Shown: positions 13,434 through 13,568 of the stretch, one piece after another | Numbering within the stretch: position 1 is the first letter of the stretch | How the letters are laid out: each line of letters starts with the position of its first letter | DNA from: Escherichia coli | GTDB taxonomy: Bacteria > Pseudomonadota > Gammaproteobacteria > Enterobacterales > Enterobacteriaceae | Direction: 5' to 3' (one strand) | Length of the DNA stretch: 30,907 bases | Assembly (NCBI RefSeq): GCF_003334385.1 | Contig: NZ_QOWN01000055.1 | Program-made: the position numbers and the translations under genes | The notes under the pieces: generated by a model | What the model saw: only the letters and a program-made list of their open reading frames with translations | What the model was told of the DNA's origin: nothing | Databases searched by the model: none

Positions 13434-13507
13434 TATAATGTTTCAACTTCATGTATTAATTGTGTTTATTTGTAAAATTAATTTATCTGACAATAACATT
13501 TATTGTT

Positions 13508-13546
13508 GATAATGAGAATCATTATTGACATAATTGTTATTATTTT
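13508..13546 (+). promoter_or_regulatory. Fur box(es) overlapping the aerobactin P1 promoter
   Basis: GATAATGAGAATCATTATT (13508-13526) matches the Fur consensus GATAATGATAATCATTATC at 17/19. It overlaps a -35 TTGATA (13506-13511) and -10 CATAAT (13529-13534); a second AT-rich Fur-like stretch follows to 13546. Confidence 0.8.
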
Positions 13547-13568
13547 ACTGTGTGGGAGCTGTTTGACT

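Follow-up and report, generated by a model that had tools for sequence, protein, structure and literature searches.

The aerobactin operator is a historical reference site for Fur. In the Escherichia coli DNA described here, a window of 30,907 nucleotides (30.9 kb, the whole stretch that was analysed), this operator lies in a short spacer from which two transcription units are read in opposite directions, the aerobactin operon on one side and shiF on the other. Such an arrangement raises two questions. Does a single Fur box control transcription in both directions, and where in the spacer is the promoter of shiF? The first can be answered from published work on near-identical sequence. The second is approached through the conservation of the spacer across lineages.

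The aerobactin locus and its spacer

The genes of the locus and the region between them are the following.

12240-13433, minus strand: shiF, an open reading frame of 397 amino acids with its start ATG at 13433 (Pfam MFS_1, E = 4.3e-18)
13434-13568: divergent control region between shiF and iucA, 135 bp, 77% A+T
13569-15293, plus strand: iucA
15294-16241, plus strand: iucB
16241-17983, plus strand: iucC
17980-19317, plus strand: iucD
19323-21518, plus strand: iutA

The control region is exactly the gap between the start codons of shiF (ATG at 13433, minus strand) and iucA (ATG at 13569, plus strand). Both starts are the same as in the RefSeq annotation of the E. coli G1/2 chromosome, where shiF is called “MFS transporter” and which is 99.8% identical over a 535-bp query (13234-13768). 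The limits that the initial annotation had given to the divergent spacer are therefore correct to the base.

The genes iucA, iucB, iucC and iucD together with iutA form an operon for aerobactin synthesis and uptake, with all reading frames uninterrupted up to 21518. The gene order, the orientation and the intact frames expected of iucABCD-iutA with a divergent shiF are all present, and from shiF to iutA only 3 of 9,279 bases differ from the annotated intact copy in E. coli G1/2. Together with the iron and Fur response published for near-identical sequence, this bears out the earlier description of an intact, iron-regulated operon. In profile searches IutA matches models of TonB-dependent siderophore receptors, and IucA and IucC match relatives of the NIS synthetases. 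No NCBIfam model was found at E < 1e-10 for ShiF, IucB or the esterase encoded near shiF, and Pfam was used for these instead. ShiF is an MFS transporter that acts as an auxiliary factor in aerobactin secretion (PMC6918656); deletion of shiF halves that secretion (Genuini et al. 2019, PMC6918656).

In the window shiF is a monocistronic gene that converges with that of the esterase. Its homolog in Cronobacter (L007, 621-2713) and on a Salmonella plasmid (L009, 495-2179) is followed by a gene in the same direction for a siderophore-interacting (ferric reductase-like) protein, of which the window has none. An Rfam scan of the whole window found no RNA family inside the 13434-13568 spacer.

The divergent arrangement is widespread among enterobacteria. 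An alignment of ShiF proteins was used to scan one genome per species for shiF loci, and in 46 of 48 loci the next gene upstream of the shiF homolog is a divergent iucA homolog; the other two end short on that side. The genera include Cedecea, Salmonella, Citrobacter, Pantoea, Serratia, Yersinia and Enterobacter, and further Trabulsiella, Lelliottia, Pluralibacter, Buttiauxella, Yokenella and Phaseolibacter. For aerobactin proper, 20 spacers were sampled from Escherichia, Klebsiella, Salmonella, Cedecea, Citrobacter and Pantoea (19 distinct sequences). Every one is exactly 135 bp long, and in every 135-bp lineage the distance from the beginning of the Fur box to the start of iucA is 61 nt. The core operator is found at 90% identity or more in 1,803 of 5,426 complete E. 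coli genomes, about one third. Identity across the shiF-iucA junction is 98-99.8% for chromosomal copies in E. coli, about 93% for ColV-type plasmids and about 80% for Klebsiella virulence plasmids.

The junction also occurs in metagenome-assembled genomes labelled “Bacillota bacterium” and “Collinsella sp.” (L012, L013, L014), with a ShiF 100% identical to that of the window. These are almost certainly misbinned E. coli contigs.

One Fur operator and two genes

The elements on the iucA side of the spacer are as follows.

13508-13526, plus-strand letters: primary Fur box GATAATGAGAATCATTATT, 17 of 19 positions as in the consensus
13506-13511, plus strand: -35 element TTGATA of P1, the main aerobactin promoter
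13529-13534, plus strand: -10 element CATAAT of P1, with TG before it and a 17-bp spacer to the -35
13529-13547: weaker, phased Fur-like site (13/19) over the P1 -10 and the start region

The consensus used for scoring Fur sites was the 19-bp GATAATGATAATCATTATC, from which GATAATGAGAATCATTATT departs at two positions (chance expectation, 0.01 matches). The 19-mer occurs once in the window, at 13508-13526. In a sliding scan it is the sole site of at least 15/19 in the 30.9 kb, with a runner-up of 14/19, and the Fur box that had been placed in the shiF/iucA spacer is thereby located. None of 100 dinucleotide-preserving shuffles contained a match to the 19-mer with three or fewer mismatches.

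Fur sites are said to be modelled as a pair of 7-1-7 inverted repeats that overlap with an offset of 6 bp (Baichoo and Helmann, in 2002) or, equivalently, as an array of GATAAT-like hexamers (Escolar and colleagues, in 1998). The primary box contains two overlapping 7-1-7 repeats, at 13507-13521 (12/14) and 13513-13527 (11/14). Around it, between 13489 and 13547, weaker Fur-like matches recur in phase, 3 and 6 bp apart, and a further 7-1-7 match (10/14) lies over the P1 -10 at 13528-13542. The weaker site at 13529-13547 is consistent with a secondary footprint that PMC2189734 quotes for ColV-K30.

P1 is of the sigma-70 type, scores 10/12 against the promoter consensus and is the top plus-strand promoter in all 19 aligned lineages. 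The 19-mer overlaps its -35 by 4 bp, covers the promoter spacer and ends 2 bp before the -10. The initial annotation had placed the box over both elements. This holds for four bases of the -35, but the box stops short of the -10, where the weaker site at 13529-13547 is found instead.

A HinfI site, GAATC, falls within the primary box at 13516-13520, and a HinfI protection assay for Fur binding has been described (PMC10318462). The “iucABCD Fur-box” of that paper, GAGAATCATTAGCATTCGC, has only GAGAATCATTA in common with the window, and the paper is used here for the HinfI principle alone.

Could the box be a coincidence of A+T-rich intergenic sequence? A+T makes up 77% of the spacer, and matches of 12-14/19 are frequent where the window is A+T-rich. 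A score of 17/19 is nevertheless unique there and is never reached by the shuffles. The box also stands in the same register in all sampled lineages, and it has been verified by ChIP in strain CFT073 (PMC7157518). The probability of a coincidence is negligible. Judged from sequence and conservation, 13508-13526 is a real and intact Fur operator, and as such textbook biology.

Evidence that this operator serves both genes comes from CFT073, where Fur has been studied by ChIP-seq and RNA-seq (Banerjee et al. 2020, PMC7157518). There GATAATGAGAATCATTATT is the motif under the peaks for iucA (c3627) and shiF (c3628), both of which are called direct Fur targets (PMC7157518). In a fur mutant iucA is up about 119-fold and shiF 32-fold, and the derepression of shiF is unaffected by deletion of ryhB (PMC7157518). 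When the CFT073 region was fetched and aligned, the motif coordinates 3469185-3469203 mapped to 13526-13508 of the window. CFT073 has the identical 19-mer, the 135-bp spacer and the same gene arrangement; of the 135 spacer bases, four are different (13435, 13502, 13505 and 13449, where the window has a private T), none of them in the box.

A second body of evidence concerns the ColV plasmid pS88, which belongs to the plasmid lineage and has a ShiF about 91% identical to that of the window. Its shiF-iucA region is inducible by iron depletion: transcripts of iucA and shiF go up in iron-depleted broth, serum and urine, by 7.7- to 17.7-fold for shiF (Lemaitre et al. 2012, PMC3438092), and shiF is stated to share “the same Fur Box” with the aerobactin operon (PMC3438092). 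In Shigella flexneri, shiF drops along with iucABCD-iutA under anaerobiosis, independently of FNR (PMC4229854).

Because these ChIP-seq, RNA-seq and expression data are published, the reading of a shared Fur box is already established. Fur control of both iucA and shiF is known from near-identical E. coli sequence, and the label “known biology” given to the region was correct. The link of the MFS gene to the same iron signal stands as well, with the identical 19-mer assigned to shiF in CFT073 and the 32-fold derepression.

The plasmid pColV-K30 offers a further comparison. Its operator was reportedly the subject of studies by de Lorenzo and colleagues in 1987 and Escolar and colleagues in 2000. 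The pColV-K30 aerobactin operator (GenBank M10930) has the same Fur box and the same P1 hexamers as the window, and at 13506-13553 a copy on a ColV-type plasmid has exactly the window's sequence. The likeness to the pColV-K30 promoter that had been pointed out is real over the box and P1; just left of the box, at 13502-13505, the window differs from ColV-type plasmids. Over stretches of 535 bp and 801 bp that take in the 5' part of shiF, the spacer and the 5' part of iucA, the window is about 93% identical to ColV-type plasmids; it represents the chromosomal island lineage. For ColV-K30, whose operator is among the founding examples of a footprinted Fur site, PMC2189734 gives a footprinted primary site, a secondary site and an extended operator of 103 bp (M10930 291-393); by the coordinates quoted there, the primary site covers the -35 and the secondary the -10, as in the window.

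Similar control regions are found in the enterobactin system. The regions fepA-fes, fepB-entC and fepD-entS are, like that of the window, divergent iron-uptake units with a short A+T-rich spacer and one or more Fur operators, and they are listed as footprinted bidirectional promoters (PMC2189734). In the enterobactin regions both promoters have been mapped experimentally and some have two Fur sites, whereas in the window the shiF promoter is predicted and one strong box would serve both genes.

Taken as a whole, the region is very probably the chromosomal E. coli version of the canonical aerobactin promoter-operator, serving two divergent transcription units. A complete aerobactin system with a normal iron switch on an island is useful for the annotation of virulence potential, and is not new. 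Inferred here are where exactly the shiF promoter lies, that it overlaps the box, and where transcription begins.

The position of the shiF promoter

No transcription start site or mapped promoter for shiF was found in the literature searched. The 19 distinct spacers were aligned without gaps, which is possible because the spacer length of 135 bp and the distance from box to iucA are constant. Both strands were then scanned with a sigma-70 weight matrix. On the plus strand P1 comes first (mean score 7.83) and therefore serves as a positive control of the scan. The minus strand has a single standout, with a mean of 8.27 and a minimum of 6.69 over the 19 spacers, against 2.69 for the next candidate. 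Its elements, and a conserved block further left, are these.

13518-13513, minus strand: predicted shiF -35, TTCTCA, within the Fur box and 17 bp from the -10
13498-13490, minus strand: predicted shiF extended -10, TGtTATTGT (TGtTAGAAT in 10 lineages)
13460-13482: block TTGTGnnTATTTGTAAAATTnATT, near-invariant in the aerobactin-proper clade

The -10 hexamer (13495-13490) is TATTGT in Escherichia, TAGAAT in 10 lineages, TAAAAT in one and TAGGAT in Klebsiella. Its first T, second A and sixth T are invariant in 19 of 19 lineages, positions 3 to 5 vary, and the preceding TG is present in 17 of 19. Fixed ends around a variable middle are the pattern that a -10 element would predict, rather than a Fur hexamer. 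More distant relatives have comparable elements. In Serratia and Yersinia (IucA identity about 47%), an invariant TGaTACAAT lies directly left of the Fur box, and in a cronobactin-like clade a conserved TTTACA-17-TGcAATATT adjoins the Fur array. The predicted back-to-back layout would likewise have been kept in at least six genera, with the left half of the box the same base for base, and more loosely in Serratia and Yersinia.

The promoter of shiF is thus probably, on this comparative pattern, TTCTCA followed after 17 bp by the extended -10 on the minus strand, with its -35 inside the Fur box. Transcription would start near 13483 and the predicted leader would be about 50 nt long. The claim draws on the comparison of lineages alone because the score in the window by itself (6.7) is reached by 60% of dinucleotide shuffles and is not significant; even P1, at 9.2, is reached by 14% of shuffles of the A+T-rich spacer. 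The predicted -35 may owe its conservation to the Fur box, the Escherichia -10 (TATTGT) is weaker than the TAGAAT of other genera, and the conserved TAACA at 13494-13498 may be part of a weak upstream Fur site instead (13489-13507, 12/19). Set beside regions of the fepA-fes type, where both divergent promoters are mapped, the window shows P1 and one predicted, conserved minus-strand promoter with its -35 in the box, the latter with a single-sequence score that is not significant.

Other positions for the promoter have to be considered. It had been argued that the spacer must hold the shiF promoter, which is reasonable, but the only minus-strand match of a simple consensus scan cannot be it. 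This match, TTAATA (13459-13454) with a 16-bp spacer and TATAAT (13437-13432), reaches 10/12 and is the best on that strand. Its -10 overlaps the ATG (TATAATG) and lies downstream of the conserved GG of the probable ribosome-binding site. It cannot drive shiF because transcription would start inside the reading frame, and after the ATG at 13433 there is no in-frame ATG, GTG or TTG before the first transmembrane segment. Nor are the hexamers conserved, with TAAAAT and TACAAT in other E. coli and CGTGAC in Klebsiella and Salmonella. This reading is very improbable.

Another reading is a promoter further from the box, in or beside the block at 13460-13482, repressed by Fur that polymerises leftwards along an extended operator. 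An example would be a -35 of TTGTTA or ATGTTA (13499-13494) with the -10 TACAAA (13475-13470). Apart from the box, no part of the spacer is better conserved than this block, phased weak Fur-like matches (9-12/19) extend left to 13452, and by coordinate alignment the 103-bp operator of ColV-K30, as given in PMC2189734, would reach to about 13450. Still, no lineage has a good minus-strand score in or near the block: the candidate TTTACA-17-CATGAA has a mean of 0.48 and a -10 without the sixth T. The block is also missing from the Serratia/Yersinia and cronobactin-like clades, which nevertheless keep the divergent arrangement. A distal promoter is for these reasons unlikely. One could also suppose that shiF responds to iron indirectly, or through read-through or antisense effects of iucA transcription, and not through Fur at its own promoter. 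The data are confined to expression and ChIP, one ChIP peak cannot resolve two targets 60 bp apart, and the CFT073 peak centre (3469166) corresponds to 13545 of the window, on the iucA side of the box. However, shiF is transcribed away from iucA, and read-through is therefore impossible. The derepression of shiF in CFT073 did not depend on ryhB (PMC7157518), the window has no other Fur box of at least 15/19, and 46 of 48 loci retain the divergent arrangement together with a Fur box. An indirect response is very improbable.

One further candidate, TAGTCA-16-TAAAAT (13569-13542, minus strand), was rejected as a promoter; it is poorly conserved, with a mean score of 2.21.

With the shiF promoter placed back to back with P1, the switch would work as follows. 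When iron is sufficient, Fur dimers would occupy 13508-13526 and spread to the weaker phased sites on either side. Bound Fur would occlude the P1 -35 (13506-13511) and, via the adjacent site, the P1 -10 (13529-13534). The same bound Fur would block the predicted shiF promoter (-35 at 13518-13513, -10 at 13498-13490). When iron is scarce Fur would leave and both promoters would fire. The derepressed cell would then make the aerobactin enzymes and receptor together with an MFS protein that raises secretion. If true, this is a simple structural account of how one Fur box controls both directions. The predicted position would also offer a defined site at which to aim reporter or mutational studies of a gene whose role in secretion is only partly understood.

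Outside the aerobactin-proper clade the block at 13460-13482 is absent; within it, the block's offset from the Fur box is fixed at -39. As a plus-strand promoter it scores low (mean 1.41) and has no conserved -35. The block would either form the opening 23 nt of the predicted shiF leader or contain, as TAAAAT on the plus strand (13473-13478), the -10 of a minor upstream iucA promoter P2, or do both. P2 is said, after Bindereif and Neilands in 1985, to start about 50 bp upstream of P1. Two regulator sites in the block were rejected. A type 2 site for IscR lacks, by eye, the CC/GG features, and PMC8262890 has no data on the spacer. A CRP site, TGTGT-N6-GTAAA, has a poor right half, also by eye.

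The start of shiF and the surrounding island

Translation of shiF involves two features at the left end of the spacer.

13447-13450, minus strand: probable shiF ribosome-binding site GAAG, placed by conservation and spacing
13449: private base T (plus strand), where all other sampled lineages have C; as A on the minus strand it turns GGAG into GAAG

At 13450-13449 on the minus strand the other 18 distinct lineages all read GG (GGAG, GGAA, GGGT, GGAT or GGTG). At the positions equivalent to 13436-13434 most lineages have a start codon GTG (or TTG/ATG), while Escherichia has its ATG three bases downstream, at 13433. From GAAG it is 13 nt to this ATG and 10 nt to the GTG that most other lineages use; the GGAG of iucA (13555-13558) has the same 10-nt spacing. 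Klebsiella records (L004-L006, L011) annotate the shiF ATG 21 nt further in, and the in-frame GTG is present there too. The first 7-9 residues of ShiF vary between lineages.

Among complete E. coli genomes none has T13449, and none has an identical spacer (best, 134/135). The base may weaken translation of ShiF, or it may be a sequencing or base-calling error. There is about an even chance that the following holds jointly: both -35 elements lie within one 19-bp box in a layout that has been kept, and T13449 weakens the shiF ribosome-binding site and could uncouple the level of ShiF from Fur-controlled transcription. A testable, conservation-based position for the shiF promoter and a private change in the ribosome-binding site are what the analysis adds to the published picture, and both are minor.

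The surroundings of the locus, with a sialic-acid cluster, IS66 and an iha-like receptor gene, are those of a chromosomal pathogenicity island. Adjoining shiF, at 3182-12082, is an accessory cluster for sialic-acid utilisation, with functions taken from the annotation of the near-identical E. coli G1/2 (L001). It comprises N-acetylneuraminate lyase, ManNAc kinase, an MFS transporter, two alpha/beta hydrolases, a KdgM-family porin, an epimerase, nanR and a sialate O-acetylesterase.

On the other side of the operon, between iutA and the iha-like gene, the small RNA Esr41 (RF02676) is encoded at 22914-22987 on the minus strand, a full-length Rfam match of 108.6 bits (gathering score 102). About 130 bp beyond its 3' end, three overlapping matches to the Fur consensus (13-14/19) lie in ATATATGATAATTATTATAATAACG at 22758-22782. 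This cluster adjoins no open reading frame start among those examined.

An intact gene for a TonB-dependent receptor of 696 amino acids follows at 24996-27086 (NCBIfam PRK13486, 1618 bits). It is probably iha; its homolog in E. coli G1/2 (L001) is frameshifted. Overlapping Fur-like matches (12-13/19) are found upstream of it at 24920-24944.

At the edges of the island are two long open reading frames on the minus strand, 149-1717 (522 amino acids) and 27691-29304 (537 amino acids). In E. coli G1/2 (L001) the counterpart of the first is a TnpC of the IS66 family, and the second is as long as a TnpC, which suggests that the nan-shiF-iuc-iha segment is bracketed by IS66 copies.
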